From Gammaproteobacteria bacterium (lineage in GTDB: Bacteria; Pseudomonadota; Gammaproteobacteria; Chromatiales; Chromatiaceae): 64,000 nucleotides of DNA. The position numbers and the translations under genes are program-made. The notes beneath the pieces were generated by a model, which searched no databases, was not told the origin of the DNA, and saw nothing but the letters and a program-made list of their open reading frames with translations. Shown here piece after piece: positions 25,974-41,604 of this stretch; positions within the stretch are counted from its first letter, which is position 1, and every line of letters begins with the position of its first letter. The stretch lies in the NCBI GenBank assembly GCA_021773975.1, contig JAJFJN010000012.1, positions 299-64,298 of the forward strand, written 5' to 3'.

Positions 25974-26042
25974 AGACCTTTATGCTGAATTATGCACTTC
26001 AGCAGGGTTAACTTATTTTTTTAGGTTGTACTAATACGGTCA

Positions 26043-26116
26043 TTGATTATGCGACACATAGAGGTTAAAAACACGGATATTCACTGCTGAAATAGAATGC
26101 AATGTCGCATAATCAA
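26043..26116. repeat. 14-bp perfect inverted repeat (TTGATTATGCGACA ... TGTCGCATAATCAA) with a 46-bp spacer
   Basis: Read directly: 26043-26056 is the reverse complement of 26103-26116. The right arm supplies the apparent ATG of the truncated sigma54-activator ORF. Confidence 0.7.
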
Positions 26117-27493: not shown

Positions 27494-28153
27494 CTACTTC
27501 TTATTATTAGCCACCCAAACCGCTGCTTCTAATCTAGATCGTAAATTCAGCTTTTTTAGCAGGTGTTTTACGTGCACTTTCACTGTTCCTTCTGTTATAT
27601 CCAGCTTACGCGCAATAAGTTTATTACTATAGCCATTAGCAATGAGTTTTAATATCTGCTCTTCTCTTTGCGTAAGCCCGGCTTTTGATGGGGTTTTTGG
27701 TGCAGCATCCTCACGTAAGGCATGCGCCATTAACTCAGTTAGCTTATCGCAAATCACAAACTGACCATTTGCTGCAGTTTGCAGTCGTTCCAAAATATCC
27801 TCCGGCTCCATATCTTTAAGAAGATAACCATCTGCGCCCGCGCGCAATGCTGCAACTACATTTTCTTCATTATCCGATACCGTTAACATAATGACACGTG
27901 AATCGACGTCTGTAGCTTTAATTGCTTCAAGCGTCTCAATGCCACCCATGCCTTTCATGTTCATATCAAGCAAAATCAAATCTGGATTAAGCTTTACCGC
28001 TAATTCTAATCCTTCTTGACCCGACGCAGCCTCCCCCACTAGCGTCAATGAATCTACCAATGAAATAAGGTCAGCAACTCCTTTTCTGAACAAAGGGTGG
28101 TCATCAATTGCTATAATAGTATTTGTTTTTTTATCATTCATCATTAGACTCAT
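27494..28153 (-). CDS. narL: NarL/FixJ-family response regulator (REC plus LuxR-type HTH)
   Basis: 219 aa. The receiver carries DLILLDMNMKGMGG. The C-terminus carries LTQREEQILKLIANGYSNKLIARKLDITEGTVKVHVKHLLKKL. It overlaps the kinase gene by 4 nt. Confidence 0.85.
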   Translation of the reverse strand: MSLMMNDKKTNTIIAIDDHPLFRKGVADLISLVDSLTLVGEAASGQEGLELAVKLNPDLILLDMNMKGMGGIETLEAIKATDVDSRVIMLTVSDNEENVVAALRAGADGYLLKDMEPEDILERLQTAANGQFVICDKLTELMAHALREDAAPKTPSKAGLTQREEQILKLIANGYSNKLIARKLDITEGTVKVHVKHLLKKLNLRSRLEAAVWVANNKK

Positions 28154-30147
28154 TTATTTTGTGCATCTTTTACAACTGCGGTATCTACGATAACGTCTTG
28201 TGAGATCACCTGCTTAAAATCTACGATATTCTTAGCATCTGTTGAAAATTCCAACTTTACTCGTGTTCCACCCTTTTCACGTCGTGATAGCTCAATTTCC
28301 CCCCCGAGCCTACCTGCTCGCTCATTTATTATTGCTAAGCCATAATGATTACGGCGCTGTGCTAACTCTGATATTCCAATACCATCATCCTCAATACTAA
28401 TTGTGACTCGGCAACTATTACTATCAAAAAGCAACTTAACTTGAACGTTTTCTGCTTTCGAATGATTAACTGCATTAGACAATACTTCTCTCACCACCTG
28501 CAGGACATGAATCTCTTGATGTGCATTTAACTGACATTCATCTAATTCATTTTCTAAAGTAATATTTATTTCACTTCGTTTTCGCCAATCTTCAACTGTA
28601 TTCTCTACAGATTGAATCAAACCACTGCCTTCCATTTTAATACGAAAGGTTGTTAACAACTCCCGCAGCTGACGGTACGCTGAGCTAATACCTTCTCGCA
28701 TTTCACCTATAATGATTTGAACTTCCTGCTCTGTATCGGGCTTAGCTATAGTCATATCCAGACGTGTTGCTTGAATTTTCAGATATGACAACGACTGTGC
28801 TAACGAATCATGCAATTCACGTGCAATCACACTGCGCTCCTCCAACAATGCTAAGCGCCTGGATTCTGTAACACGTTGGGTCAGATTCAGTGCCATACCG
28901 ACATGACGGGCAACTGTTTCTAACATTTGTGTTTGTCGCTCTTCTACTCCACCACCAGGCAACACCTCCATAAATAACACACCAACCTGTGCATCTTTAT
29001 CTTTAATAGGAGTCGAGACAAGCTCTACCTCATGATCACCCGTCGTTGCCTTAAATATGTGGGTAGCACCATCAGCGTAACATTCATTACAATTAAGGTG
29101 AGAGCAGACATCAGGGATATCATCTACAGCATCCCTGGTAGAGGCCAACACAAGCTGGCTGGTAAGCGCATTTTTCCCTAAACAAATTGCACCCGGTCCA
29201 AATCCAAGTGGCTTCTCAATATCTTTTAATAGGTTTTCATACGTTGCATCTGACAGTGGAGCCTCACTCAAACGCCTAATCGTGTTATACAATAACTCTA
29301 ACGATTGGTTGCTACGCTCTAAATCAATTGTTTTATCTTTTACCCTTGCTTCTAAGTTCGCATACATCTTAGATAGATCTTCAGACATCTCATTAAAAGA
29401 AGCGCCTAACTGGCCTAATTCATCGTTAGCAATGTAATGAGTTCTAACAGAAAAATCCCCCATCCTTGCACTATTAGCACAAACCAATAACCTATCTAAC
29501 GGTGCCAGCACCTTTCGTGCAAGCAAGATAACGCTAAACAGCGCAGCACACAGCGTTAAAGCAAGAGAGACAATCATAGCCAGCTTCAAACTTTGAATCT
29601 TTGCCTCAGAGGTCTCTTCCAGTAGAGTTACAAAATTATCTATATCAAAAACAAAATCATTTATCACTGAGAGATATTCTTGCCTGACATTACTACGCAG
29701 ACCAGGGGAACTATCACCATATAGATTCCTAAGATCTTCCTTATATTTACGAGATTCAGCATAAGCCAAAAATGTGGGTTTAATCTCGCTGTTCCATCTT
29801 TGACTTAAGCGCCAATATGCATCTTGTAACTTATCCTTAGGGTTAACCGGAAGTGCCTCAACCAGCGCAGGATGAGTAAGACGATAATCAAATTCTAACA
29901 GCTCTGCCTCAATAGCCCGTGCAATCGAAGCGTTCTTACTCCTGATATCCTGATCTAGATCAATAACAGAGAGAATACGAAAGGATTGCATGCGTAAAGT
30001 ACCAGCCTGATTAATAGCACCTGCATCTCCACGAATAATCTCAGTTGTAAATACAGAACTCAACATGCCTACAAATGCCAAGGTTGTGATGGCCGCCATA
30101 GCCATACCAAGCCGCCGTAAGGTGGGCTTTTTATACAACCCAATCAT
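28150..30147 (-). CDS. narX: NarX/NarQ-type sensor histidine kinase
   Basis: 665 aa. The periplasmic domain carries a NarX P-box-like AINQAGTLRMQSFRI between two TM helices. It is followed by HAMP, a central Cys-containing GAF-like module (CSHLNCNEC), HisKA_3 (RELHDSLAQSLS) and HATPase domains. Confidence 0.8.
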   Translation of the reverse strand: MIGLYKKPTLRRLGMAMAAITTLAFVGMLSSVFTTEIIRGDAGAINQAGTLRMQSFRILSVIDLDQDIRSKNASIARAIEAELLEFDYRLTHPALVEALPVNPKDKLQDAYWRLSQRWNSEIKPTFLAYAESRKYKEDLRNLYGDSSPGLRSNVRQEYLSVINDFVFDIDNFVTLLEETSEAKIQSLKLAMIVSLALTLCAALFSVILLARKVLAPLDRLLVCANSARMGDFSVRTHYIANDELGQLGASFNEMSEDLSKMYANLEARVKDKTIDLERSNQSLELLYNTIRRLSEAPLSDATYENLLKDIEKPLGFGPGAICLGKNALTSQLVLASTRDAVDDIPDVCSHLNCNECYADGATHIFKATTGDHEVELVSTPIKDKDAQVGVLFMEVLPGGGVEERQTQMLETVARHVGMALNLTQRVTESRRLALLEERSVIARELHDSLAQSLSYLKIQATRLDMTIAKPDTEQEVQIIIGEMREGISSAYRQLRELLTTFRIKMEGSGLIQSVENTVEDWRKRSEINITLENELDECQLNAHQEIHVLQVVREVLSNAVNHSKAENVQVKLLFDSNSCRVTISIEDDGIGISELAQRRNHYGLAIINERAGRLGGEIELSRREKGGTRVKLEFSTDAKNIVDFKQVISQDVIVDTAVVKDAQNK

Positions 30148-30599
30148 TTAGAACACCAAAACCCATAACACTTAATCAACCAAGTCCGTGTATTTAAAAA
30201 AACAAATGTAACCATACAGCCCCCATTTTATTACTGTATAAATGAGAAGTTAATAACTCAATCACCTATAAAATTTAAGACCAAAAAAAGAATATATAAA
30301 AAACAACTCAAGACATATCGCTGTCAATTATTTGTTATTTATCATTTATCCAGCAATGCTCAATTAACTTAGTTAATAGTATTATATAGGCATCATATCT
30401 AACATATTTCTATTCTTTAACTATGACAACTAAAGACCTTACCTTTTCTGCCATAAAAAAATGGTAGAAAAACCTTATATTTGCTCTTAAAAAAGCTATA
30501 CCCCCAAATAACTCATTAGCATATTACACACCATAAACAGCATCAGATTAATAAGAACTTTCACAAGTATTTTCAGTAACTTACAAAACACTACCCAAG

Positions 30600-30615
30600 T
30601 ACCCATAAAGAGGTA
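30600..30615. promoter_or_regulatory. Candidate NarL/NarP 7-2-7 binding site (TACCCAT-AA-AGAGGTA)
   Basis: Both heptamers fit the NarL consensus TACYYMT; the second reads TACCTCT on the other strand. They are inverted with a 2-bp spacer, 126 bp upstream of the operon ATG. A third near-consensus heptamer, TACCCAA, lies at 30592-30598. Confidence 0.5.
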
Positions 30616-30740
30616 TCATTCAACCGAAAAACAGTCCCATTGAAAAAAGCCAGCGTAAATATTCCTTGCCAAAAGGGGGTGTTATTCATATCGTAGCGAC
30701 ACCCAAATTTCAGTGCTCAAAACTGCAAACGGGAGTCTAA

Positions 30741-31619
30741 ATGTCATCAGAAAATAAACATGAGAGTTCCACTCACCATCTGCGTGAGTATGGAGTTCAA
30801 ACGCCGGGGACAAAGGGTATTCCTGGCAAAAGACGTTACTCAATGGTCATCGACCTCAGGAAATGCATTGGGTGCATGTCCTGTGTAGTAGCTTGCAAAG
30901 CCGAATATGGCGTTCCTCTAGGAGTCTGGCGAACCTGGGTTATGGTCGCAGATAAGGGGAGGTATCCAGATAGCAGACGCATCTTCATGCCTCGCCTGTG
31001 TAATCACTGCGATTACCCAATCTGCGTACGCAACTGCCCCACACAAGCCACCTTCAAACATGCAGAAGGCTTCGTGCTACAACGGTATAACCGTTGTATC
31101 GGATGTCGGACCTGCGTCATAGCCTGTCCATACAACGCCAGGCATTTCCTTCCAGCAAAACGCACCAACAACAACCTTCCCAAACTGGTTGTCGATAAGT
31201 GCACCTTCTGTATCCATAGGGTTAAGAAGGGATTGGTACCTGCATGCGTACAAGCCTGTGTTGGTGGCGCACGCATCTTTGGTGATGTTAACGATCCCAA
31301 GAGCGAAGTAGCAAAACTTACTGCAAAAGAGAAGGTTACAGTACTAAAACCTGAACTAGGCACAAGTCCATCCGTCTACTACATTGGTGGCGACTGGGAG
31401 ATTATGGATGAAACCCATAACTACAAACATCGCTCAGCTCAGCAGAAGGCAGAGTTCAATACCTTTAAACGCAATCATCACGGAGATGCATTCGCTGATA
31501 TCGTTGAAGGTGAGAACACCATGCACCATGTAGGCAAAAACATGTCTGACTTCCTGGCGTCAATACCACACAAGTTCCATGATGTGGTTGCTGCGCTCAA
31601 GAAGCTGCTGTTTGCATAA
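30741..31619 (+). CDS. Four-cluster [4Fe-4S] ferredoxin subunit of a complex iron-sulfur molybdoenzyme (PsrB/DmsB/TtrB-like)
   Basis: Four Cys groups are present: CIGCMSCVVAC, CNHCDYPICVRNCP, CIGCRTCVIACP and CTFC...ACVQAC. There is no signal peptide. A C-terminal extension of ~80 aa is His-rich. Confidence 0.85.
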   Translation: MSSENKHESSTHHLREYGVQTPGTKGIPGKRRYSMVIDLRKCIGCMSCVVACKAEYGVPLGVWRTWVMVADKGRYPDSRRIFMPRLCNHCDYPICVRNCPTQATFKHAEGFVLQRYNRCIGCRTCVIACPYNARHFLPAKRTNNNLPKLVVDKCTFCIHRVKKGLVPACVQACVGGARIFGDVNDPKSEVAKLTAKEKVTVLKPELGTSPSVYYIGGDWEIMDETHNYKHRSAQQKAEFNTFKRNHHGDAFADIVEGENTMHHVGKNMSDFLASIPHKFHDVVAALKKLLFA

Positions 31620-31631
31620 GGGGGGGCAACA

Positions 31632-32537
31632 ATGGAAACCTTAATTACATATAACGCCGTCCACCACAATCCGTGGGGGACACCCATTACCATTTACTTC
31701 TGGCTGGTTGGCGCCAGTGCCGGTTCATTTGTACTCTCCGCTTTTGGCTGGGTATTCGGCATCAAACGCTACAAACCACTAGCTCTGAGCGCATCAGTAT
31801 TGGCTATTGGCATGCTGATGATCGTTCCAGTGCTGCTGATTTGGGATCTGGGTAAACCATTCAGGTTTATCTACCTCATGCTACCAGGATACTGGCACGG
31901 CACGGCTCCCATGGCCTGGGGTTCTCTGCTGATCTTAAGCTACCCAGTCTCGATGTTTGTCTATACCTACTTTGTCATTAAAAATGACCAAAAATGGGCG
32001 AAAATAATAGGCATCATCGCTATTGTTCTAGCGCTCTCTACACACTGGTATACCGGTGTTGTTATGGAGCTGAACCCTGGCCGCTACATCAACCATACAC
32101 CGCTTGCTCCACTGTTATTTTTAACAGGTGCATTTATATCGGGTATCGGCTTGATGATCCTAGTGCTCTGGATCAAGAACTTCTTTATGAGTGAGGAGAA
32201 GAAGATCAAGTGGGCGCTTATGGAAGAGATGGCTCAATATATGATGTATGGCATCGTATTTGACTGCTTCCTGCTCTTTCTCGACTTCATGCAAACACAG
32301 TACGGAACCGCAAGCGAAAATATAGGGCATCATGAAGTATTGATGAATATTTTCTTCACTCCGTACATAATGCTTGAGACTGTTATCGGCCTGCTTCTTC
32401 CACTAGTTATTCTGTGTTCACCACTCAAACGCACAAGACTTGGCGTATATGGCGCCTCCCTCTTGGTCGCTGGCGGTGTATATGGCATGCGTATCTGGTG
32501 GGTTATGGGCGGCCAATACATGCAGTCCTTCTATTGA
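31632..32537 (+). CDS. NrfD/PsrC-type integral membrane quinone-interacting subunit
   Basis: 301 aa with about 8 TM helices, lying between the FeS and molybdopterin subunit genes. SD GGGGGG is upstream. Confidence 0.85.
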   Translation: METLITYNAVHHNPWGTPITIYFWLVGASAGSFVLSAFGWVFGIKRYKPLALSASVLAIGMLMIVPVLLIWDLGKPFRFIYLMLPGYWHGTAPMAWGSLLILSYPVSMFVYTYFVIKNDQKWAKIIGIIAIVLALSTHWYTGVVMELNPGRYINHTPLAPLLFLTGAFISGIGLMILVLWIKNFFMSEEKKIKWALMEEMAQYMMYGIVFDCFLLFLDFMQTQYGTASENIGHHEVLMNIFFTPYIMLETVIGLLLPLVILCSPLKRTRLGVYGASLLVAGGVYGMRIWWVMGGQYMQSFY

Positions 32538-32553
32538 TTTGGAGAATAGAATA

Positions 32554-34902
32554 ATGTCAAAAATCAACAGACGAGACTTCTTAAAAGCAGGCGCAGTTGC
32601 AACTACCGCAGCAGCAGTTCCCGGTGTGGGATCAGCTATGGAGCTAAAACTCGGTGGCGCCGACTTTCATCAAATCAGGACCTTTCATGAGCGCAAAAAG
32701 ACACCATATCTTTGCACCATGTGTCCCTATTTTGATGGCGGATTCTGCTACGAAGAAGCCGGTGAAATTGTTAAGGTCGAGGGCAACCCTGACCATATCG
32801 CATCCCGCGGTAAATTCTGTACCAAAGGACTAGCATCATTCTTCGGCGCATCTGACCCCGACAGAATCCTCGCTCCTATGAAACGCTCAGGTCCACGTGG
32901 CTCAGGCCAATGGAAAGAGATCAGCTGGGATGAAGCCATCGCTGAGGTTTCTTCAAAGGTACAAGCCGCTGTCGATGCCAATCCAGACAGCGTTGTCCTA
33001 AACGAAGGCGCCTTCAAAGAGGGTGGCACAACCCGTTTTATGGATACACTGGGTTCAAGCTCAGTCATCCGTAGTCGGGTTCCATCCATCAGCAGCGTGG
33101 CTAAACAGGCGGTGCTTAAAAAGACCTTTGGTGTGGACTCCACACTGCCGGACTTTGAAAACACCAAGTATGTCCTAAACTTCGGCGAAAACATTATTGA
33201 GACAGCCCTTCCATTTGCTCAACGTCTCACAGATGGCATCGTCAACAACCGCTTGAAGCTTGTCACCTTTGACGTGCGTATGTCACACACTGCAGGAAGA
33301 AGTAGTGAATGGATACCTGTATTTCCAGGTAGTGACGGTATTATCGCACTGGCTATGGCCAATGTGATCATGGAAAAAAATCTGGCAAATGTTGACTTTA
33401 TAAATAGCTGGACTAATACCACTGCAAGTGAGTTGGCTCAGCAATTGAAAGCCTACACACCAGCCAAGGCTCAAAAGGCGAGTGGTGTCTCAGCAAAGGA
33501 TATCAAACGTCTTGCCATTGAGTTTGCCAAAAGCAAACCAGCAATAGTCGTTAGTCAAAATGGCCTGAGCTTCCATAAAGGTGGTGTAGATGCAGAAGCA
33601 GCAGCTCAGCTTCTGACCATCATAACTGGCAATATTGATATTGAAGGTGGTAACTGTCTGCCACGCCAGTTTGATATCGCTTCAATCCAACCCGCTCCTG
33701 CTGCTTCAGGCAGTGCCTCACGCCAGCTGAACCACACCTTTCCATTTGAGGTAAAAGGCGGCAAACGTAAGGTACAGGTAATGTTCAACCATATGAGCAA
33801 TCCAGCCTACTCATCTCCTGCAGCAAGCGTCTGGCGCGATGTGCTAAAAGAAGAGAGCCTGATTCCATATCTGGTTGATTTCAGCCCCTTCATGAGTGAA
33901 ACATCTGCATTGGCAGATATCATCCTTCCTGATGTGGTTCCAACAGAGCGGCATGATGTTGGCAGCAGTCCAACAGCACTGCACCCATGGCTCACCAAGA
34001 CCATCCCTGGTGTTAAAGCTCGAGGCCAGGCACAGGATGTTCGTGAAACCCTGAAAAAGATTGTCGAAACCATCGATGCAGATGGTAGCCGTGGCATGAA
34101 AGAGTTTTGGTCCTTTAAAAATGCCAAAGACTGGGTCAAACAAGAGGTGGCTGGTATCGGGCTGGATAAAAAAGCTCTCAAAGCACTCGAAAAAGGTGTT
34201 TATCCGGCCTACGGTAAGATTGACCCCAACACGCGAAAGATTGTCAAAAAAGGCGAGCCTATCCCTGCTGATTACAAAACCTACGAATCAGCTGGATTTG
34301 CAACACCCTCTGGCAAGGTTGAGGTCTCTACACCAACATGGACAGAAAACTCACGACTCTCTAACATTAAGTCAAATGAGTTTGTTTTAACCACCTTCAA
34401 GGTGAGCTATCAAAGCCTCTCTCGCACATCCAATCTGAAATTATTGTCAGAGTTATGGCATGCCAATCCACTATGGATCAATAAAGAAATTGCTCTAAAA
34501 CTGGGAATCGGCGATGGCGAACTGGTTAGAGTTAAGAGCGAGGTGGGTTACCTGGTAACTAAAGCCTGGCTGACTCAGGGCATTCATCCTCAGGTCATCG
34601 GGTTCTCTACCTCTGTAGGGCGCTCTGCCTATGGTCGTGTTGCTCAAGCTGATCCTACTGCAAAAACACCACTTGCAGATGACTCACAGGCAGATGAGGA
34701 TATTCTTGCCAACCTCTGGTGGAGAGATGGTGGTATCAACCCCAACGACATCATCCCACTAGCCATTGATCCAGCATCTGGAGCACAGGCCTGGAATGAT
34801 ACGGTGGTAACGATCTCACCTTCAGAATCAGGCGACAAATATGGTGACATCAAAGTCGATAACGCCAAACATGAAGCCATATATAAGAGACAAATGGGTT
34901 AA
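32554..34902 (+). CDS. Tat-exported molybdopterin (bis-MGD) oxidoreductase-type catalytic subunit, substrate unknown
   Basis: The start is set at the ATG at 32554 (SD GGAGA 9 nt upstream), giving the twin-arginine signal MSKINRRDFLKAGAVATTAAAVPG. An N-terminal FeS motif CTMCPYFDGGFC-x23-C is present. Typical CISM segments occur (GNPDHIASRGKFCTKG, KEISWDEA). 782 aa. Confidence 0.85.
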   Translation: MSKINRRDFLKAGAVATTAAAVPGVGSAMELKLGGADFHQIRTFHERKKTPYLCTMCPYFDGGFCYEEAGEIVKVEGNPDHIASRGKFCTKGLASFFGASDPDRILAPMKRSGPRGSGQWKEISWDEAIAEVSSKVQAAVDANPDSVVLNEGAFKEGGTTRFMDTLGSSSVIRSRVPSISSVAKQAVLKKTFGVDSTLPDFENTKYVLNFGENIIETALPFAQRLTDGIVNNRLKLVTFDVRMSHTAGRSSEWIPVFPGSDGIIALAMANVIMEKNLANVDFINSWTNTTASELAQQLKAYTPAKAQKASGVSAKDIKRLAIEFAKSKPAIVVSQNGLSFHKGGVDAEAAAQLLTIITGNIDIEGGNCLPRQFDIASIQPAPAASGSASRQLNHTFPFEVKGGKRKVQVMFNHMSNPAYSSPAASVWRDVLKEESLIPYLVDFSPFMSETSALADIILPDVVPTERHDVGSSPTALHPWLTKTIPGVKARGQAQDVRETLKKIVETIDADGSRGMKEFWSFKNAKDWVKQEVAGIGLDKKALKALEKGVYPAYGKIDPNTRKIVKKGEPIPADYKTYESAGFATPSGKVEVSTPTWTENSRLSNIKSNEFVLTTFKVSYQSLSRTSNLKLLSELWHANPLWINKEIALKLGIGDGELVRVKSEVGYLVTKAWLTQGIHPQVIGFSTSVGRSAYGRVAQADPTAKTPLADDSQADEDILANLWWRDGGINPNDIIPLAIDPASGAQAWNDTVVTISPSESGDKYGDIKVDNAKHEAIYKRQMG

Positions 34903-34943
34903 CCCTGGTCTCTTAAATAGATACGATAACGGAGGATGGAAGA

Positions 34944-35609
34944 TTGAAGACAACAACTAAAGCCATGCTTTTGATCATTGGTGCAATCGTCCTGGTTCTG
35001 CTCTTTTCTGCTCTGAGCTGTACCAGTGATCGATTCCAACGAATCAGCGCATGCACCGTATGCCATGAAATATTTGTTGATTATGACGAATACAAACCCA
35101 TCGGCATCGCAAGTGAAGAGATTGAAGACTACAAACCAAGAGAAGTCTTTGAGCCCGGTGCATTCGACGTAACAGTTGGCTGCGCAGAGTGTCATGCCTA
35201 CCCTTACGAGGAGTACCGTGAATCACCTCACTATGACAATGAGCTTGAGGTACGTCCTGGCTGCGTTGGCTGCCACGAACCACACAGCGTACGTGAGATC
35301 CTGCACTGGAAGTTTATTTACCTGAACCAAGGTGTTGTAGGAGAAAGCCCATTCCATGCTGTCTCTAACAGCTTGCGCGATATCGAGATGTGGGAAGAGG
35401 AGCTTCGACCTAAAATGGCTGCAAAAGTACGTCAGCAAATGGTTGAAGAGAAAAGTGAAAAGTGCCAGGTCTGCCATAAGACTGAAAGTGAGTGGTGGCA
35501 GGATATAGGCCAGCACAAAACCATGAAGGAAAAAGGCGTCTCCTGCATCAACTGCCACTACAACCTTGTTCACGCAGAGGTTCCATGGCCAGAGATGGAA
35601 GAGGAGTAA
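34944..35609 (+). CDS. Membrane-anchored NapC/NirT-family cytochrome c with five haem motifs
   Basis: TTG start 7 nt after SD GGAGGA, and an N-terminal TM helix. Five CXXCH motifs: CTVCH, CAECH, CVGCH, CQVCH and CINCH. The last four align with the NapC pattern (C..CH..YxEY...HY, C..CH.PH, C..CH, CI.CH....H). Confidence 0.8.
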   Translation: MKTTTKAMLLIIGAIVLVLLFSALSCTSDRFQRISACTVCHEIFVDYDEYKPIGIASEEIEDYKPREVFEPGAFDVTVGCAECHAYPYEEYRESPHYDNELEVRPGCVGCHEPHSVREILHWKFIYLNQGVVGESPFHAVSNSLRDIEMWEEELRPKMAAKVRQQMVEEKSEKCQVCHKTESEWWQDIGQHKTMKEKGVSCINCHYNLVHAEVPWPEMEEE

Positions 35610-35775
35610 CCACTAAATGTGTAGCCTAGCTGTGGCTATGAACTTATCCATAGCTGGGTTACTCTAAAGCTCTATTCATCATAGATACCTTATGCTGAAT
35701 ATAGTATTAACCAGCGGGGGCTTACCCCTAACAACTTGTATTTCTTCGAACTATCAAGTATCCGTGGAGGAAACC

Positions 35776-36168
35776 ATGAAGCGATTGAAAAAGAGTATCA
35801 ACATAGCAGCAGCAATTGCAGTAGCTTTAACTATGGGCTTAACTACCGGCCTTGCTGTCGCAGCTGACTGCGATGATGAAGATGCCGTCAAAACTGTACA
35901 GAAAAAGGTCTACAAAAAGAGTTGTAAAAAATGCCATGGTTCCAAAGGCAACGGCAAAGGTCCAGGTGCTAAAGGCATGGATCCTGCGCCACCTGATTGG
36001 ACTGCTGGCACAGAAAAATCCGATGATGATCTTTACCAGATCATTATGGAAGGCAGCAAAGACACCGAAATGAAGGGTTGGAAAGCTGGTGTCGCTAAAG
36101 CAGGTAAAGAGGTCTCTGAAGATGAAGCGCATACTCTGGTATGCATCGTCCATGGCTTCAAAAAATAA
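35776..36168 (+). CDS. Periplasmic monohaem class I c-type cytochrome
   Basis: Start set at the ATG at 35776 (SD GGAGG 5 nt upstream). The signal peptide reads ...GLAVAA. A single CKKCH is present, with a Met-containing segment downstream (IIMEGSKDTEMKGW). Confidence 0.75.
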   Translation: MKRLKKSINIAAAIAVALTMGLTTGLAVAADCDDEDAVKTVQKKVYKKSCKKCHGSKGNGKGPGAKGMDPAPPDWTAGTEKSDDDLYQIIMEGSKDTEMKGWKAGVAKAGKEVSEDEAHTLVCIVHGFKK

Positions 36169-36180
36169 TTAGCCACAATA

Positions 36181-36214
36181 ACATTCAAGGGGGCTTTAAA
36201 GCCCCCTTGAATGT
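36181..36214. repeat. 34-nt perfect palindrome (17-bp arms, no spacer) between the monohaem and first hexahaem genes
   Basis: ACATTCAAGGGGGCTTT/AAAGCCCCCTTGAATGT, read directly. It starts 13 nt after the cytochrome c stop and ends 36 nt before the next ATG. It is followed by only a weak T tract (TTGC). Confidence 0.75.
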
Positions 36215-36250
36215 TTGCACCATAATAAAATTATCCGGGAGGGTAGAGTA

Positions 36251-37264
36251 ATGCTGAATAAGCGTAGCACATGGCTGCTGTCGGTAATGCTGACTGCAAG
36301 CCTATTCTTGTTTACAGGTGCAGTACATTCTGCAGCAAAAGCAGCGCCGGCACCGGCCCCTAAAGCAGCGGCACCCGCTGCTCCCGCAGTAGATGACGAC
36401 ACCGTAAATCTCGTATATGGCGATATCGTCATGACCAGAACCAGAGAAGGTATGGAAGAGGGCGAAGTAGAAGCTGTCGTGTTTCCACACTGGTTCCACC
36501 GAATTCGTTTCCGCTGCAAGGTCTGCCATGAAGATACCTTTGTAACCAACAAAGGCGAAAATATTGTCGACATGGATCAGATCAGTGCTGGCGAGAAATG
36601 TGGCATGTGCCATGATGGCTCCGTTGCATGGGACCCACTTGAGTGCGAAAACTGCCACTACTATCCAATGGAACAGCTAGATGCTGAAGCAGCGCCACCA
36701 CCTGAAGAGACCAACCCTGCCAACCTGCTATTCGCTGGTCGTGGCGGAAAGATAGCTGGCAAAGGCGATCGTCGTAAACCATCAGGTTCTGCCTTCAAAT
36801 GGGGCGGCGGCTGGCAACCACGTGCTTTCTCCATGGCGGGTCTTCCAAAAGATAAATATGGTCTCGTAGATTGGATCAAGATCACCAAAAACGGCATGCT
36901 TCTACCAAAGGGTTCAATCGATCCAGAAGCCCCACTGTATGAATCTCCTGTTCACTATGAATTTGATGCGGACGGTGAAGAGGACATCGAAGACATGGTG
37001 ATCAAAGTAAAGAGCAAGAGCATTGCTGAAGTGCTCTTTCCTCACACCTTGCACACTTGGTGGCTAAACTGTAAAAGCTGTCATCCACACCGTTTTGTCC
37101 GTACCGCGGGTGATACCCCAATGACCATGAGAGAGATGGCCAAAGGCAAGTACTGCGGCGAGTGTCACGGTAAAGTCGCATTCCCGCTTGAGGATTGCGG
37201 TAAATGCCACAACAGAGAGAAAGTTGCCGCATGCAAAGCAAGCGATAACTGCACATTTGACTAA
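36251..37264 (+). CDS. Periplasmic hexahaem cytochrome built from two c7-type trihaem domains
   Basis: Start at the ATG at 36251 (SD GGGAGGG). Signal peptide, then an Ala/Pro-rich linker (AAKAAPAPAPKAAAPAAPA). Two units of the pattern FPHxxH..C..CH...M....G..CG.CH.G..A....C..CH are present, giving CKVCH, CGMCH, CENCH, CKSCH, CGECH and CGKCH. Confidence 0.8.
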   Translation: MLNKRSTWLLSVMLTASLFLFTGAVHSAAKAAPAPAPKAAAPAAPAVDDDTVNLVYGDIVMTRTREGMEEGEVEAVVFPHWFHRIRFRCKVCHEDTFVTNKGENIVDMDQISAGEKCGMCHDGSVAWDPLECENCHYYPMEQLDAEAAPPPEETNPANLLFAGRGGKIAGKGDRRKPSGSAFKWGGGWQPRAFSMAGLPKDKYGLVDWIKITKNGMLLPKGSIDPEAPLYESPVHYEFDADGEEDIEDMVIKVKSKSIAEVLFPHTLHTWWLNCKSCHPHRFVRTAGDTPMTMREMAKGKYCGECHGKVAFPLEDCGKCHNREKVAACKASDNCTFD

Positions 37265-37294
37265 ATTGGCATAGTAAACGTAGTGGGAGTGGTC

Positions 37295-38491
37295 ATGATG
37301 AATAAAATATTGAGATGTATAACCATCGCCTTGTTCTTATTCTCATGTACCACTCCTTTTGCTTTTGCCGAGGAGAGAGTTCTTCCCAAAAAGATGACAC
37401 CTGCCAAGTTGGAAAAGTCAGTCCATCGCCAGCTTAAATATATTGATAAACGCCTTCTTGCAGGTAAAAGTGCCGATCAAATCCTAAATAGTGGAAACGA
37501 TAAAGCCATATTCATCCTGAATGAAAGCAAGAAAAAGCGCGATATTATTGCCAAACAGATCGAAGAAGGAGAGATGGAACCAGCCTATTGGGCATTAAAA
37601 GATCTTGGCAATGAACTTCGTGCTGCCTCAAAACTTGTACGCGCAAAAAACGTATCCGCAAAAAAGATAAAGGATGACCTAGACCTAGCAAAAATTAAAA
37701 GTGATGCATACGAAGAACGCGCCAAGCAACGCGGCATTCATGATGGTAGCGGTGGCAAAGAGGCGCACGACCTATTTGAACAAGCTGAAGAAAAGCGCAA
37801 AGAAGCCCGCCAACTTGAAAAAAACAAGAAGTATAAAGAATCCACCAGCGCCTATCTCAGCTCAACTGAATTTATAAAAAAAGCCATTGCCACATCAAAA
37901 CGGCAAGGATATAGCAGCAGCAAAATCAATAAAGAAGAAAAAAGAGTACTGCCTAAAGGGATGACGCCAGAAAAATTGAAAAAATCCGTAATCAGGCAAT
38001 TCAAATATATAGACACCCGCCAGCTTTCAGATAAAAGTCACCAAAAAATAAAAGATAGCCAGAATAGTGAAGCTATAACCATTTTTAACCGGGGACGTAA
38101 ACGCATTAACACTATTGCAAGCAAGATTGATGAAGAGCAGTATGAAGAGGCTTATTGGGCGCTACAAAAACTTGCCAGCTCCTTAAAAGACGCCATGAAA
38201 CTAGCTCTAGCTAAAAAAACTGAAGCTAAAAACGACAAGAACGAAATGGATAGTGCTCGCATCACAAGTGATGCCTACCTCGAACGTGCAAGACAGAGAG
38301 GCATTCATGAAGGCAAAGGTGGTGCCGAAGCCCTGGAGCTTTTTAAACGCGCAGAAGCTGAGCGCACTGATGCCATCAACGCACAATCAAAAGAACAATA
38401 TAAATGGGCATCAAAAGGCTACCAGCTTTCAACTGAATTCCTAAAGAAATCCATTACATCAGCAAAAGAGTGGCAGAAATCCAACGAATAA
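37295..38491 (+). CDS. Secreted helical protein made of two tandem ~185-aa repeats, unknown function
   Basis: The signal peptide MMNKILRCITIALFLFSCTTPFAFA has a possible AFA/E cleavage site or LFSC lipobox. The halves starting at nt 37370 and 37934 align end to end (RVLPKKMTPAKLEKSV../RVLPKGMTPEKLKKSV.., AYWALKDL/AYWALQKL, SDAYEERAKQRGIHDG/SDAYLERARQRGIHEG, LSSTEFIKKAI/LSTEFLKKSI). Confidence 0.7.
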   Translation: MMNKILRCITIALFLFSCTTPFAFAEERVLPKKMTPAKLEKSVHRQLKYIDKRLLAGKSADQILNSGNDKAIFILNESKKKRDIIAKQIEEGEMEPAYWALKDLGNELRAASKLVRAKNVSAKKIKDDLDLAKIKSDAYEERAKQRGIHDGSGGKEAHDLFEQAEEKRKEARQLEKNKKYKESTSAYLSSTEFIKKAIATSKRQGYSSSKINKEEKRVLPKGMTPEKLKKSVIRQFKYIDTRQLSDKSHQKIKDSQNSEAITIFNRGRKRINTIASKIDEEQYEEAYWALQKLASSLKDAMKLALAKKTEAKNDKNEMDSARITSDAYLERARQRGIHEGKGGAEALELFKRAEAERTDAINAQSKEQYKWASKGYQLSTEFLKKSITSAKEWQKSNE

Positions 38492-38563
38492 ATCACATCG
38501 AAGAGGCATTAAAAAACATACATTGACCATGGCAAATCCTGATTCACTGCGCGAGTCCACTGC

Positions 38564-39748
38564 ATGAAGCAACTCAAGTTACTTCATGCATTACTGTGGC
38601 TTTTTACTGCCCTGCCCTTCACCCTATTTCTTTCAACAGCAAGCTATGCTGAAGACACACCTTTCCGCATTAATTTCGTTACGAACTATAAGTCATTTCA
38701 ATTCAAAGCACAGGAAGAACTCATAAAAAGTAGCAAGGCAATCATGCCTGGTGAAATAGAAGCGCTTATTAACGATGCAATGTCGGCAGAAATCAGCCTA
38801 GGGCAAAAAATGTTTATGCTGGATGCTGCCAATGCTATGGCCAGCGGTTACAACCACTATCATGGTGGGGGGAAAAAATTACTTCGCAAAATCAACAAAC
38901 TCATAAAAGAAGAGCTAGAAAAAGAGAAAGCAAAAAATGCAGAATTAATGAAGTGGAATGATGAAGAGCGTTTTCTTGGTAACTTTGTCATGAAAACCCG
39001 TGAAAAAGAGATGGCCGAAAAAGGACTCGCTCCTGTCATCTACCCTCATTGGGTGCATCGTATCTGGTTTGAATGCAAAGTCTGTCACCAAGACATCTTT
39101 ATTATGAAGCGGTGGCGTAATGACATCACCCAAGCAAAAATTGAAGCCGGACAGCAATGCGGAAAATGCCACAATGGTGAACTTGCCTTTGGCGTTAAAG
39201 ATAACTGTGACCGCTGTCACCTCGCAGGAAAGCCAGAAGCTGACAAACTACATAATGCAAAGCGTGTTGACCATAAGGCTATAAAAGAAGTTGCTAAAAA
39301 AGTAGGTGCCGAATGGAATTTTGACAAACTTCCCAACGGCCAGCTTCCTGTCGATCGCTTTGGATTTATCGATTGGTTAAATATGAAAAAAGTGGGGGTA
39401 TTCAAACCAATACACTCGCTAAATGAAAATTATAAACCTGAAACCAGGGACAATATAATTCTCTTTGAATCTAAAAGTAAGGCGAAAAATGTTCTTTTTA
39501 GCCACGACGTACATTCAAGCTGGATCAAATGCTCATCCTGCCATCCTGAAGTTTTTACTAAAACATTAACCAACAATGTAAAAATGGTCAGGATGTCAAA
39601 GGGACAGTACTGCGGCCACTGCCACGGCAAGGTCTCTTTTACATTTGCAGACTGCACACGCTGTCATATGCAGGAAAAAGGAGTCATGGTTGACGGCGCC
39701 CTACTTCATAAAGGAAAACCTAAAAAGAAGAAAAAGAAGAAACCCTAA
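38564..39748 (+). CDS. Periplasmic hexahaem cytochrome: N-terminal helical domain plus two c7-type trihaem domains and a poly-Lys tail
   Basis: Signal peptide ending SYA/E. Six motifs: CKVCH, CGKCH, CDRCH, CSSCH, CGHCH and CTRCH. The C-terminus reads KGKPKKKKKKKP. Confidence 0.8.
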   Translation: MKQLKLLHALLWLFTALPFTLFLSTASYAEDTPFRINFVTNYKSFQFKAQEELIKSSKAIMPGEIEALINDAMSAEISLGQKMFMLDAANAMASGYNHYHGGGKKLLRKINKLIKEELEKEKAKNAELMKWNDEERFLGNFVMKTREKEMAEKGLAPVIYPHWVHRIWFECKVCHQDIFIMKRWRNDITQAKIEAGQQCGKCHNGELAFGVKDNCDRCHLAGKPEADKLHNAKRVDHKAIKEVAKKVGAEWNFDKLPNGQLPVDRFGFIDWLNMKKVGVFKPIHSLNENYKPETRDNIILFESKSKAKNVLFSHDVHSSWIKCSSCHPEVFTKTLTNNVKMVRMSKGQYCGHCHGKVSFTFADCTRCHMQEKGVMVDGALLHKGKPKKKKKKKP

Positions 39749-39772
39749 ATTTCACACAACGAGGTCATTATT

Positions 39773-40195
39773 ATGAGCGACACAATCAACCATCCAGAAG
39801 ACATCCGCTTCTACAAAAAACTTATACGACTAACTGACCAACAACTTGCATCGATCCATAAGAATCTTGCAAGAGATGCTAGTTTCTTCCATAAACATCT
39901 ATTTCTATTTCGAAATGTTCTTTTCAAAAAAACCATTCTTAAACTGCTAACTCAGAAAGAAGCTCGGGTCGATGAAAAAGAAGCACTTAATGAAATGATG
40001 GCCGAACTAAAGTTTATAGAAGCAGATAATAATGAATGGAAAACGCATGGCAAAGATGAGATTGATTACATTCGGATAATGGTTCATGGTTTGCGTGATA
40101 TCTCAGGTGAAGAAGTTAAAGAAGAAACCGAAACAAAAGGAGAGAAAAAAGCAAGCAAGCTCACATACCGGCTCAAGATCAACGAATGTAGTTAA
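39773..40195 (+). CDS. Hypothetical protein without a signal peptide inside the cytochrome operon
   Basis: 140 aa, SD GAGGT upstream, no Cys-rich or haem motif, acidic/basic helical C-terminus. No family recognised. Confidence 0.5.
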   Translation: MSDTINHPEDIRFYKKLIRLTDQQLASIHKNLARDASFFHKHLFLFRNVLFKKTILKLLTQKEARVDEKEALNEMMAELKFIEADNNEWKTHGKDEIDYIRIMVHGLRDISGEEVKEETETKGEKKASKLTYRLKINECS

Positions 40196-40227
40196 GTAAC
40201 GCTAACAAACAAATATTCAAGCATTTT

Positions 40228-41181
40228 ATGCTACATGCCACAAAATTCCTGTTTAGTTGCCTAATCCTATTATCAGCTAATGCCTACGCTGAATATGGCG
40301 ACATCATCTTAAACAGAACAGCTGATGCCATGCGTGAGGCAGAGGTTGATGATGTAGTCTTTCCCCATTGGTTCCATCGTATACGTTTTCGTTGCAGTGT
40401 ATGCCATGAAAATATATTTAAAATAAAAGCTGGCTCGAATGAAATTTCAATGTCTACCATCACAGAAGACAAACAAGCTTGCGGCGTATGCCATGATGGA
40501 CTGGTTGCTTGGGAACCACTTGAATGTGAGCGCTGCCACGCACTAGAAGAGGGCTGGAGTTCTGGTGCTATTCAGCATTCCATCCGAGAAGATGAAAAAA
40601 AGAACATTTTACTTGGAATTGTTGGAACAGTTGCCAAGCCCTACTCAAAATTCATGGAAATTGGCACGGGCTGGCATCCTTTGGCTCTAGCTAAAAGTGG
40701 GTTACCACTCGACAAATATGGCCTTGTAAACTGGGCCGATGCCGTACGCAAAAAAATAGTTAACCCACTATGGAGCCTCAACCCAGAAGATGATATTTCA
40801 GAGCACGAGCTAAGAGATACAAATATTCTATTTACAGCTAAAGGAGATAGCATGCCTGATGTTATCTTCCCGCATGACATCCATAGCTATTGGCTAGAAT
40901 GTAAAATTTGTCACGGCACACAAGATGGCCCTATGTTTATTAAAGAATTAGGAGCCAATAATGTAACCATGATGGAAATTGGCCAGGGAAAATGGTGTGC
41001 CAGATGTCATGACAAAATTGCATTCCCCATAAGCGATTGCAATCGCTGCCATAACCACCCAAAGGGCAAACCAATTTCCAATAGCGTATTAATACGCCCT
41101 CTTAAGGTAGCTCCACCCCCTACTCTTCCCCCCATTGATGAACCTGCACAGCAAAATTCTGTTGATAGCGATTTTTTCTAG
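40228..41181 (+). CDS. Periplasmic hexahaem cytochrome (two c7-type domains), paralogue of 36251-37264
   Basis: Signal peptide ending AYA/E. Six motifs: CSVCH, CGVCH, CERCH, CKICH, CARCH and CNRCH. It shares VVFPHWFHRIRFRC.VCHE with the first paralogue. The C-terminus is Pro-rich (KVAPPPTLPPIDEPAQ). Confidence 0.8.
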   Translation: MLHATKFLFSCLILLSANAYAEYGDIILNRTADAMREAEVDDVVFPHWFHRIRFRCSVCHENIFKIKAGSNEISMSTITEDKQACGVCHDGLVAWEPLECERCHALEEGWSSGAIQHSIREDEKKNILLGIVGTVAKPYSKFMEIGTGWHPLALAKSGLPLDKYGLVNWADAVRKKIVNPLWSLNPEDDISEHELRDTNILFTAKGDSMPDVIFPHDIHSYWLECKICHGTQDGPMFIKELGANNVTMMEIGQGKWCARCHDKIAFPISDCNRCHNHPKGKPISNSVLIRPLKVAPPPTLPPIDEPAQQNSVDSDFF

Positions 41182-41259
41182 ATCAAAAAGTACAAAAGCC
41201 ATACAATGTCCCGCTTATAATCATCCAACAGCCATCTTTAGTTACGAGAAATACACATA

Positions 41260-41604
41260 ATGACCAGAGTATTACAGTCCATAGCGCTTTTCGTAGCTTT
41301 AACTACCCAAGCATTAGCAATTGATACAATTAACATTATCTTTGACTCAAAGGTAAGTAGTATGAAAGAAGCGGGCTTAGGAGCTGTCACATATCCGCAT
41401 AAGTTACACGAAGAACTCTATCAGTGTGATGATTGCCACCCAAGAATATTCATCGAAAAAAAGGGCGGGAATGACGTCAATATGCAAAAAAACATGACTG
41501 AACAATATTGTGGTTTTTCAGGGTGTCACAATAGCGCATACGCTTTTCCATTATATCTTTGTGACTACTGCCATGAGGTTTTACCAACTGCAGGTAAGAA
41601 ATAG
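41260..41604 (+). CDS. Periplasmic single-domain c7-type trihaem cytochrome
   Basis: 114 aa with a signal peptide ending ALA/I. The pattern is VTYPHKLHEELYQCDDCH ... YCGFSGCH ... CDYCH. The middle site is CX4CH rather than CXXCH. Confidence 0.75.
   Translation: MTRVLQSIALFVALTTQALAIDTINIIFDSKVSSMKEAGLGAVTYPHKLHEELYQCDDCHPRIFIEKKGGNDVNMQKNMTEQYCGFSGCHNSAYAFPLYLCDYCHEVLPTAGKK

Follow-up and report, generated by a model that had tools for sequence, protein, structure and literature searches.

We analyzed a 64,000-nt stretch of gammaproteobacterial DNA (contig JAJFJN010000012.1; hereafter the window) that carries, at positions 30741-41604, a cluster of respiratory genes divergent from a NarX/NarL-type sensor and regulator pair. 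The first four genes encode an iron-sulfur (FeS) protein, an NrfD-type membrane protein, an exported subunit with the fold of molybdenum enzymes (the Mo-fold subunit) and a membrane-anchored pentaheme cytochrome (c5). We found that these four genes form a conserved core, present in 48 non-redundant orthologous loci of Gamma-, Alpha- and Deltaproteobacteria and Magnetococcales, and that 27 of 38 informative loci have nirS, the gene for cd1 nitrite reductase, no more than 3 kb from the core. Throughout the family, residues of the active site of polysulfide reductase (Psr) have been replaced in the Mo-fold subunit. We give about an even chance to the reading that the cluster encodes a quinol:cytochrome c oxidoreductase under nitrate/nitrite control, whose scaffold is of Psr type and whose molybdenum site is degenerate. 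The first-pass annotation of this DNA had left the function open-ended; gene context now ties the core to nitrite and nitrate respiration, into which it probably feeds electrons. We propose a dedicated link to nitrite respiration because nirS lies near the core, electron carriers and N-oxide reductases are among its neighbors, and nitrate and anoxia regulators accompany it.

The core genes and their linkage to nirS

More than 100 relatives of the Mo-fold subunit, 55-95% identical, were found in the database, all of them about 785 aa long and named either generically or as 'thiosulfate/polysulfide reductase'. Our genome scan used two peptide patterns on one genome per species and therefore under-samples the family; it yielded 61 loci, nearly all from metagenome-assembled genomes (MAGs), whose open reading frames (ORFs) were compared with the proteins of the window and the nir genes from locus L004. 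The closest hosts, Sedimenticola and Ca. Polarisedimenticolaceae (88-92% identity), are the window's own lineage. Other hosts are Thiohalophilus, Chromatiaceae, Arenicellales, Halieaceae, Halobeggiatoa, Marithrix and Thioploca, and further ones are Rhodospirillaceae, a few Deltaproteobacteria and Magnetococcales, including the cultured strain FCR-1, whose publication does not discuss nitrogen metabolism.

The composition of the core is constant. The c5 gene follows the Mo-fold gene in all 44 loci with enough downstream sequence. Where nirS is near, a small cytochrome c is the usual companion, and nirF, nirDLGH and nirJ are often present. Two loci, L017 and L022, have the core between nirS-cytochrome c and nirF, the place taken in P. 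stutzeri by nirT and nirB; NirT of that species is a NapC-family cytochrome encoded beside nirS. The core stands alone in five loci (four Beggiatoaceae and one other), and it is accompanied in seven loci by a train of c7-type multiheme cytochromes; a Thiohalophilus locus (L010) has both the train and nirS. In a neighbor-joining tree of the large subunit that has no support values, the loci with a c7 train fall among the nirS-linked loci as a derived clade, and hexaheme c7 trains also occur without the core, once in Thiolapillus and once in a deltaproteobacterium. The first-pass annotation had described a single respiratory island and suggested a search for co-occurrence of the whole set. Its anatomy stands; its evolutionary unity does not, as the cluster consists of a widespread four-gene core and a lineage-specific c7 train that is confined essentially to a derived Sedimenticolaceae-like clade. 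Judged by synteny and similarity, the window's 11-gene arrangement is a lineage-specific elaboration of a broader, uncharacterized nirS-associated core, and of the nir context the window has only a homologue of the nirS-associated small cytochrome c.

Other neighbors of the core and of the train were recorded in individual loci. Cupredoxin genes lie near the core in L026, L029 and L001. The Halieaceae-like locus L026 (3848-6579) continues from the core into genes for a periplasmic binding protein (PBP_like_2), a cupredoxin of the plastocyanin/azurin type and a protein with pentapeptide repeats, an arrangement that L029 and L063 share by sequence similarity. A Thioploca MAG (L023:6355-9951, - strand) has the core followed by a 490-aa octaheme protein of Otr/Hao type (PF13447) and a 660-aa fusion of a multiheme cytochrome with cytochrome b561. 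This layout appears to match BOGUAY_2381-2386 of orange Beggiatoaceae from Guaymas; there the core genes had been annotated as subunits of a thiosulfate/polysulfide reductase, and BOGUAY_2386 is an octaheme protein of Otr/Hao type (PMC6449678). The stand-alone Thiolapillus train (L066:10001-21206) includes an NHL-repeat protein and a 784-aa multiheme protein and adjoins a NIT-HAMP-PAS-GGDEF-EAL signaling protein, a second case, besides the window, of a c7 train paired with a nitrate/nitrite sensor.

The Mo-fold subunit carries a family-wide change of its active site. Aligned with PsrA, the molybdenum ligand Cys173 corresponds to Ser180, His145 to Gly152 and Arg332 to Asn336. The first-pass annotation had correctly reported that no Cys stands at the ligand position; among 114 orthologues this site is occupied by Ser (57), Gly (54) or Asn (three) and never by Cys, the Arg332 equivalent is Asn in 113, and the His145 equivalent is Gly in all. 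Because this remodeling or decay of a Psr-type active site is family-wide, an oxyanion reductase of the Ttr, Psr or Arr kind is unlikely. Because Ser and Gly are evenly mixed with some Asn, the ligand position is not under side-chain selection.

As an outgroup for the active-site comparison we used 12 sequences of an uncharacterized sister group (about 860 aa, 40-47% identical; L045-L052, L058 and L060 in our scan) that occurs in Nitrospirae, Deltaproteobacteria and Nitrospinota MAGs and in which the Cys is kept in 10 of 12 sequences and the Arg in all 12. The core family has kept 162 of the 264 columns that are conserved in the sister group, and the relaxed columns include ones that flank the old active-site residues (153, 181-185, 335 and 343-347) and further ones at 483-492 and 620-624. 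Invariant in the family are the twin-arginine translocation (Tat) signal, the FS0 cluster motif (C54-x2-C57-x3-D61-x27-C89 in the window), Lys91 as the bridge between FS0 and pterin, and the dinucleotide-binding motifs FDVRxSxTAxRSxEW..FPGxDG, NxxSNPxYSxPA, ADIILPD and the T.K...H..S.T.N block. The third FS0 ligand (residue 61, at about 32734-32736) is Asp in 106 of the 114 orthologues and Cys in eight; in the sister group it is Asp in 10 of 12 and Cys in the rest. This suggests an Asp-ligated [4Fe-4S] cluster or a [3Fe-4S] cluster at FS0. From these patterns, the ancestral catalytic residues have been lost and the scaffold that would hold FS0 and the pterins has been preserved, a combination compatible with either a bound or a lost cofactor. 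At the sister-group loci, the FeS gene is usual and an adjacent NrfD gene is often absent; tetra- or pentaheme cytochromes are sometimes near, and L052 also has c7-type cytochromes.

Searches with the whole subunit place it nearest to Psr and to arsenate reductase (Arr). PsrA (2VPW, 196 bits) and ArrA (6CZ7, 178 bits) lead the PDB profile search at about 19% identity, and an AlphaFold2 model (pLDDT 85) gives ArrA (TM-score 0.73) and PsrA (0.71) as the best Foldseek matches. ActB (6lod) was matched only over a short stretch in the profile search (E = 2e-7) and lies outside the top 50 fold matches. The best NCBIfam match, PhsA (NF012032), scores 253.8 against a cut-off of 694 with only the N-terminal half aligned, and QrcB, TtrA and ArrA are also far under their cut-offs (scores below). 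As first proposed, the subunit thus falls outside the characterized families, and we found no characterized clade whose members routinely have c7 neighbors.

The three partner subunits were assigned with Pfam and NCBIfam profiles, judged against curated cut-offs (Table 1). The FeS subunit lacks both a Tat signal and hydrophobic segments; TtrB is its best NCBIfam match (215 vs a cut-off of 416), and DsrO is just passed (203.6 vs 200). The eight transmembrane (TM) helices of the NrfD subunit were counted by a hydropathy scan plus reading of the sequence. The cytochrome c5 belongs to the NapC/NirT/TorC family (PF03264, 89.5 bits vs 24.1) and is not an orthologue of NapC/NirT (47 vs 311) or TorC (53 vs 478) by NCBIfam; no informative PDB sequence match was found for it.

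Taken together, the core (30741-35609) would encode a conserved complex of four subunits, facing the periplasm. The eight-helix NrfD subunit would hold a quinone site and exchange electrons with the quinone pool, and the four [4Fe-4S] clusters of the FeS subunit would serve as the onward wire. The Mo-fold subunit would carry its FeS partner across the membrane by the Tat pathway and have a structural role, most likely turning over no substrate; a non-catalytic subunit would have been kept because it bears the Tat signal that the FeS partner lacks. Electrons would leave through the pentaheme c5 to soluble periplasmic carriers. Such a complex would act as a quinol:cytochrome c oxidoreductase dedicated to denitrification, with NirS and a small cytochrome c as its usual operon partners.

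Proposed nitrate control and the cytochrome train

The ORF listing and translations give 11 co-directional genes on the + strand at 30741-41604, in the order FeS, NrfD, Mo-fold, c5, monoheme cytochrome c, c7A, a helical protein, c7B, a small protein (Sm), c7C and c7D. The first-pass annotation had counted 12 genes, with gaps of about 12-80 bp; the shared direction is borne out and the number is not. The gaps measure 12-82 nt, or up to 166 nt if the monoheme gene starts at Met29 (35776). The strands and domain assignments of the first-pass annotation hold, as do the B-C-A gene order (FeS-NrfD-Mo, as in ttrBCA) and the total of 27 heme-binding motifs, which we recounted as 26 CxxCH and one CX4CH. 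A terminator scan found no convincing + strand terminator within 30741-41604, and it is plausible that all 11 genes form a single nitrate/nitrite-controlled transcription unit.

The divergent genes encode a NarX/NarL-type pair, as first described: the sensor has a PilJ/NarX N-terminal domain, HAMP, HisKA_3 and HATPase domains, the regulator has REC and GerE domains, and the two genes overlap by 4 nt. By hydropathy scan, the periplasmic domain of the sensor lies between TM segments 15-33 and 191-209. It contains the motif AINQAGTLRMQSFR, which we take to be P-box-like by comparison with E. coli NarX. The control region between the pair and the cluster, given before as 590 bp and AT-rich, measures 593 bp at 31% GC, and it contains a perfect NarL 7-2-7 inverted heptamer site. 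This site is the sole match in the 64 kb, even at one mismatch, against an expectation of 0.27 per window. The ATG at 30741 follows 141 nt downstream of it, and the -35 element of a promoter candidate about 50 nt downstream. Control of the operon by nitrate or nitrite, through NarX/NarL at the 7-2-7 site, is what we infer from this arrangement, and the perfect site strengthens the link between pair and operon that had been drawn before. The system is like NarX/NarL in domain architecture, in the P-box-like periplasmic motif and in having a 7-2-7 operator in the target promoter; it differs in that the central region of the sensor (665 aa) is longer than in NarX of E. coli, and in having a target other than nar, nap, nir, nrf or fdn.

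Regulatory features of the other loci likewise point to nitrate, nitrite and anoxia. Exact 7-2-7 sites were found in none of the other 65 loci, with near-matches in L001 and L002 only; NarL control would therefore be specific to the arrangement in this genome. A motif scan found no FNR box in the window's control region. Upstream of the core, about 15 loci have FNR/Dnr-like boxes (at most one mismatch), where our own estimate predicts about 0.016 per locus. L001, from a 92%-identical relative, has a gene for a NIT-domain protein divergently upstream of the operon, and a NarXL-like pair lies beside nirS in L012 and L054. About 2.8 kb upstream of the operon, L028, from an 88%-identical relative, has a gene for a Crp/FNR-family regulator (4577-5371; cNMP_binding, 3.9e-18).

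Downstream of the core, the cluster encodes one monoheme and four c7-type cytochromes. The monoheme protein is 34% identical (E = 1e-13) to the nirS-adjacent small cytochrome of L004. The three hexaheme proteins score 128, 132 and 107 bits on TIGR04257 against a cut-off of 40, each with two stretches, and c7D scores 39.6 on PF14522 against 24.8. The c7B family has 201 database matches, and c7C shows a weak match to QrcA in its C-terminal domain (E = 1.8e-6). The middle heme site of c7D (41318-41574) reads CGFSGCH, a CX4CH motif, and the count of two CxxCH motifs is the same in all c7D homologues at related loci. The tail of c7B (39722-39745) is a run of eight Lys (GKPKKKKKKKKP), the signal peptide of c7A is followed by a linker rich in Ala and Pro, and the tail of c7C is rich in Pro; these segments may serve tethering or interaction.

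Two further proteins are encoded within the train. The secreted helical protein is internally duplicated, as first proposed (50% identity between its halves over 177 aa). It is restricted to c7-train loci, with homologues in L001, L002, L005, L006, L027 and L028, and has no Pfam, NCBIfam or PDB match. Sm, a 140-aa protein, has no signal, in agreement with the first-pass annotation, and no hydrophobic segment was found in it. Sm matches no Pfam or NCBIfam family and has 19 close homologues; those of L012 and L054 (52-54% identity) lie between c5 and nirS, and those of L011, L018, L021 and L044 (25-28% identity) lie next to the core. Its AlphaFold2 model was unusable (pLDDT 57).

This second layer of the cluster (35692-41604), specific to Sedimenticolaceae, thus comprises a NirM/NirC-like monoheme cytochrome, four c7 cytochromes and two accessory proteins. 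The monoheme cytochrome and the 21 c7 hemes would distribute or store electrons in the periplasm, passing them towards reductases encoded elsewhere. The operon would be switched on by nitrate or nitrite, with the divergent NarX/NarL pair acting at the 7-2-7 site.

Table 1. Features of the cluster, its control region and its left border, in window coordinates.
Feature	Coordinates	Strand	Evidence
DDE_5 transposase remnant, sub-threshold	25458..25973		23 bits vs cut-off 27
Truncated sigma-54 activator AAA+ fragment	26102..26470		PF00158 1.8e-43, profile positions 7-117 of 168
NarL-type response regulator, REC + GerE/LuxR helix-turn-helix	27494..28153	-	Pfam Response_reg 1.9e-27, GerE 1.1e-20
NarX-type sensor kinase, 665 aa	28150..30147	-	Pfam PilJ 1.3e-10, HAMP, HisKA_3, HATPase_c
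Divergent control region, 593 bp, 31% GC	30148..30740	.	Coordinates and composition
Perfect NarL 7-2-7 inverted heptamer site TACCCAT-AA-AGAGGTA (TACCCATAAAGAGGTA)	30600..30615	+	Motif scan
Sigma-70-like promoter candidate TTGCCA-17-TATCGT	30666..30694	+	Consensus scan, 9/12 positions; weak match, no evidence alone
Four-cluster FeS subunit	30741..31619	+	Fer4_11 8.8e-21; 16 Cys in 4 motifs
NrfD/PsrC-type membrane subunit, 301 aa, 8 TM helices	31632..32537	+	Pfam NrfD 1.6e-31 over residues 11-296
Tat-exported subunit of the Mo-bis(pyranopterin guanine dinucleotide) (Mo-bisPGD) fold, 782 aa from ATG 32554	32554..34902	+	Pfam TAT_signal, Molybdop_Fe4S4, Molybdopterin, Molydop_binding
Membrane-anchored NapC/NirT-family pentaheme c5, 221 aa	34944..35609	+	Cytochrom_NNT 2.8e-25; five CxxCH; TM helix 8-26
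Secreted monoheme class-I cytochrome c, likely start Met29 (35776)	35692..36168	+	Pfam Cytochrom_C
c7 hexaheme A, signal peptide, likely start 36251	36215..37264	+	TIGR04257 1.1e-37, 2 stretches; six CxxCH
Secreted, internally duplicated helical protein	37283..38491	+	Halves 50% identical over 177 aa
c7 hexaheme B, poly-Lys C-terminus	38564..39748	+	TIGR04257 5.3e-39; six CxxCH
Small cytoplasmic helical protein Sm, 140 aa	39773..40195	+	No signal or TM segment
c7 hexaheme C	40228..41181	+	TIGR04257 3.5e-31; six CxxCH; GSU1996 (3ov0) 9e-33
c7 triheme D, 2 CxxCH + 1 CX4CH	41260..41604	+	Pfam Cytochrome_C7 4.5e-10

Comparison with known complexes and competing explanations

Psr and thiosulfate reductase (Phs; T. 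thermophilus structures 2VPW-2VPZ) and Arr (6CZ7) are closest to the window's large subunit in sequence and fold, and share with the core a Tat-exported A subunit, a signal-less B subunit with four [4Fe-4S] clusters and an eight-helix PsrC-type anchor. The window protein differs from them in its low identity (about 19%), in the replacement of Cys, Arg and His, in the Asp as third FS0 ligand, in the B-C-A gene order, in the obligatory NapC-type pentaheme and in a nirS and nitrate-sensor context instead of a sulfur or arsenic one. Membership in Psr/Phs was rejected on the three replaced PsrA residues and the PhsA score, and membership in Arr/Arx on the ArrA score (113 vs 1600), the ArrB score (184 vs 450) and the lack of the Cys ligand. 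The tetrathionate reductase system TtrBCA/TtrSR has the same B-C-A order, and TtrB is the best match of the FeS subunit; in the window, the FeS subunit is without a Tat signal, the Mo-fold subunit lacks the Cys ligand, and the regulator is of NarXL type instead of TtrSR. TtrC is predicted to have nine TM helices (PMC8076601). We rejected Ttr membership (TtrA 98 vs 1750, TtrB 215 vs 416, no Cys, no TtrSR), with gene order alone matching.

Qrc and alternative complex III (ACIII) combine a Mo-like protein without cofactor with FeS, NrfD-type and penta- or hexaheme subunits (PMC6303296). QrcABCD, the cytochrome c3:menaquinone oxidoreductase of sulfate reducers, has class-III multiheme cytochromes as partners (PMC6303296) and is, by analogy of composition, the best functional analogue of the window core. 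Both have a Tat-exported Mo-like subunit, non-catalytic in Qrc and probably so here, a four-cluster FeS subunit, an NrfD-type subunit and a multiheme cytochrome c anchored in the membrane. QrcD, however, has 10 TM helices, QrcC has a [3Fe-4S] cluster and QrcA is a non-NapC hexaheme, whereas the window core has eight helices, four 4-Cys motifs, intact FS0 and molybdopterin guanine dinucleotide (MGD) motifs and a denitrifier/nirS context, and its electron flow is probably opposite. Qrc membership was rejected (QrcB 169 vs 440, QrcC 128 vs 400, eight TM helices in 301 aa, all FeS motifs with four Cys). ACIII (ActABCDEF) also has Mo-like, FeS, NrfD-like, pentaheme and monoheme (ActA, ActE) components, and its genes often lie beside a terminal reductase. 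It differs in a fused and cofactor-less ActB, two 10-helix subunits (ActC/F), a [3Fe-4S] cluster, ActD and an oxygen-reductase partner, and it was rejected because the window's FeS and Mo-like genes are separate, the window has one eight-helix NrfD and ActB is matched only at E = 2e-7.

In E. coli Nrf, NrfD and NrfC (eight TM helices, four clusters) pass electrons from quinol to the pentaheme NrfB and on to nitrite reductase (PMC8076601). NrfB is soluble and not of NapC type, the system has no Mo-fold subunit, and the reductase of the core is the cd1 enzyme NirS, not NrfA. We rejected Nrf membership on scores (NrfC 148 vs 378, NrfD 39 vs 348, NrfB 20 vs 167) and on the absence of NrfA from the window's ORF listing. 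DsrMKJOP was likewise rejected: DsrO is passed only just and TtrB scores higher, DsrP reaches 63 against 350, and no DsrJ, DsrM or DsrK is encoded in the cluster. The c5 cytochrome has five hemes, against four in NirT and NapC; in the Nap system, NapGH hands electrons to NapC. The c7 proteins resemble Geobacter c7 cytochromes (PpcA; the dodecaheme GSU1996, 3OV0) in stringing triheme c7 domains within secreted proteins, and differ in having two domains per protein, linkers of about 130 aa and one CX4CH heme in c7D, in their gammaproteobacterial sulfur-oxidizer host, and in being tied to nitrate/nitrite sensors, not to metal reduction.

We found no published description of this module in full-text literature searches. 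Of the fifteen types in a 2021 catalogue of NrfD-containing complexes, not one has the window's composition (PMC8076601). Two further candidates were rejected, as the Ferrigenium 'novel complex' has no Mo-like subunit and the nrfD operons of Deferrivibrio are ordinary Psr/Ttr. Reasoning by analogy, we are evenly balanced on the view that the complex works like Qrc, ACIII or NrfBCD without being a member of any of them.

Several observations weigh against a quinol:cytochrome c oxidoreductase with a dead molybdenum site. A NapC-type cytochrome can oxidize quinol alone, so that NrfD and the FeS subunit look redundant in a pure quinol dehydrogenase, and the window has no nirS in its six-frame ORF listing. 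The evidence is comparative throughout, the neighbor-joining tree is without support values, the outgroup comprises 12 sequences, and all carriers but one are uncultured. The other points bear on catalysis. The invariant Tat signal, FS0 motif (C-x2-C-x3-D/C-x27-C) with its conserved Asp, Lys91 and MGD motifs speak for retention of a molybdenum cofactor. Besides the 162 outgroup-conserved columns that were kept, the Mo-fold subunit is under constraint as strong as that on its partners (gammaproteobacterial and Magnetococcales sequences are 59-65% identical), and in the former active site Glu151 and Asn336 have newly become near-invariant, a change that could reflect new chemistry instead of decay. 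Eight-helix anchors and all-[4Fe-4S] partners normally go with true complex iron-sulfur molybdoenzymes, and cofactor-less Qrc and ACIII have 10-helix anchors and a [3Fe-4S] cluster (PMC6303296). These features, nearest folds that are ArrA and PsrA and not ActB, and hosts that are mostly sulfur-oxidizing nitrate reducers would fit an active Mo/W-bisPGD enzyme that has no protein metal ligand, as in arsenite oxidase, and acts on some N- or S-oxyanion, sharing electrons with NirS or c7 through the pentaheme and with the quinone pool through NrfD. We rate such an enzyme, the main rival to our reading, as unlikely, though it deserves serious weight. The mixture of Ser, Gly and some Asn at the ligand position shows no side-chain selection, the catalytic Arg has been lost and nearby pocket positions are relaxed, and none of the loci examined showed a gene for a TorD/NarJ-type chaperone or for cofactor biosynthesis. 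Moreover, no candidate substrate accounts for both the nirS adjacency and the stand-alone occurrence in Beggiatoaceae, and the invariable pentaheme would be superfluous for a quinol-to-substrate reductase of Psr or Ttr type. A true thiosulfate, polysulfide or tetrathionate reductase (Phs/Psr/Ttr), as the databases name it, we consider very improbable. PhsA and TtrB are the best sub-threshold profile matches, the gene order is that of ttrBCA and the BOGUAY homologues were read in this way (PMC6449678), but the PhsA, TtrA and TtrB scores are far under their cut-offs, the PsrA ligand Cys and catalytic Arg are missing in all 114 orthologues, and the obligatory pentaheme, nirS synteny and nitrate sensors, without TtrSR, are foreign to these systems.

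Two other explanations assign the c7 train a different place. Electrons could flow in the Qrc direction: c7 cytochromes charged by periplasmic oxidation of sulfur, hydrogen or formate would reduce quinone via the pentaheme, FeS and NrfD subunits, and the quinol would serve nitrate respiration. The c7 domains are of class III (c3-like), the C-terminal domain of c7C weakly resembles QrcA, Qrc is a cytochrome c3:menaquinone oxidoreductase with similar subunits (PMC6303296), and nitrate-sensor control would fit quinol supply to Nar. We judge this direction improbable nonetheless, with NirS and a class-I cytochrome c, both high-potential acceptors, as the partners in 27 of 38 loci, the c7 train a derived, minority state, no periplasmic hydrogenase, formate dehydrogenase or Sox gene noted beside the core in the loci examined, and an NrfD subunit without the two extra helices of QrcD. 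The train and core could also form a conduit for extracellular electron transfer or uptake, given 27 hemes in secreted cytochromes, the resemblance of the c7 domains to the Geobacter 'nanowire' cytochrome GSU1996, and the NHL-repeat and 784-aa multiheme proteins of the stand-alone Thiolapillus train; this strikes us as scarcely credible. All the cytochromes have ordinary Sec signals and the main partner of the core elsewhere is periplasmic NirS. No beta-barrel, porin-cytochrome pair or lipoprotein cytochrome was identified in the window or in the six other c7-train loci, though no search aimed at them was made: the ORFs at window positions 24958-43436 were compared with domain libraries, which left several without family, about 20 ORFs outside were seen as N-terminal fragments in a six-frame listing, and the ORFs of the other trains were only matched to 19 reference proteins and scanned for heme motifs, a screen by which a beta-barrel is unrecognizable.

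Flanking sequence and significance

The composition of the window does not single out the cluster. The GC content is 0.51 in the mrp genes, 0.48 from the FeS gene to c7A and 0.41 from the helical-protein gene to c7D, compared with 0.448 in downstream chromosomal genes and a window mean of 0.456; several downstream chromosomal genes have a GC content at third codon positions as low as the half from the helical protein to c7D. The first-pass annotation had called the cytochrome half markedly AT-richer, which overstates a value that is no outlier here, and horizontal acquisition, which it had read from this, draws no support from composition. The sole hint of mobility comes from flanks that vary among close relatives. 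Operon neighborhoods differ among close genomes, with the Crp/FNR gene in L028 and HtpG or NIT-domain genes flanking the operon in others. The debris described at the left border is in part confirmed: the truncated sigma-54 activator fragment is clear, the transposase is matched only below threshold, and an unassigned 134-aa ORF lies at 26667-27071. These features (25458-27071) mark a local rearrangement scar beside narXL.

Elsewhere in the window, an ORF at 56993-57799 (- strand) encodes a 268-aa secreted protein with two PilJ/NarX N-terminal domains and no output domain (Pfam PilJ 8.4e-24, two stretches), which may be a stand-alone periplasmic nitrate/nitrite-binding protein. The highly hydrophobic co-directional ORFs at 1465-10587 (+ strand) look, by the first 50 or so residues of each, like an operon for a multisubunit Mrp-type cation/proton antiporter; they are the GC-richest part of the window. 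No tRNA or Rfam matches were found in the 64 kb.

The broadest version of our proposal goes further than the quinol:cytochrome c oxidoreductase itself, and we hold it tentatively, at somewhat less than even confidence. The core would be a widespread and so far unrecognized entry complex from quinol to NirS in sulfur-oxidizing and magnetotactic denitrifiers. It would be a living intermediate between Psr and Qrc/ACIII, having kept FS0 and the scaffold for pterin binding, lost the catalytic residues and gained a cytochrome, and it would have been rewired in Sedimenticolaceae to a 21-heme c7 network under nitrate control. In a still bolder variant, the molybdenum site without a protein ligand would be active, and its new N- or S-oxyanion chemistry would be coupled directly to nitrite reduction. 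In textbook schemes, the cd1 nitrite reductase is supplied by the bc1 complex through cytochrome c551 or azurin. If true, an operon-linked quinol-oxidizing complex would change models of electron flow and energy yield in denitrification, and it would correct the systematic 'thiosulfate/polysulfide reductase' mis-annotation that inflates the sulfur-reduction potential read from metagenomes. The sister group with its Cys and Arg, the core family and Qrc/ACIII would provide a natural series from a molybdoenzyme to a complex III-like machine. The c7 train would extend multiheme networks in the style of Geobacter to nitrate-sensing gammaproteobacterial sulfur oxidizers. The carriers of the core, among them Beggiatoaceae, Sedimenticolaceae, Arenicellales and Magnetococcales, drive coupled sulfur and nitrogen cycling in sediments, oxygen-minimum zones and vents.

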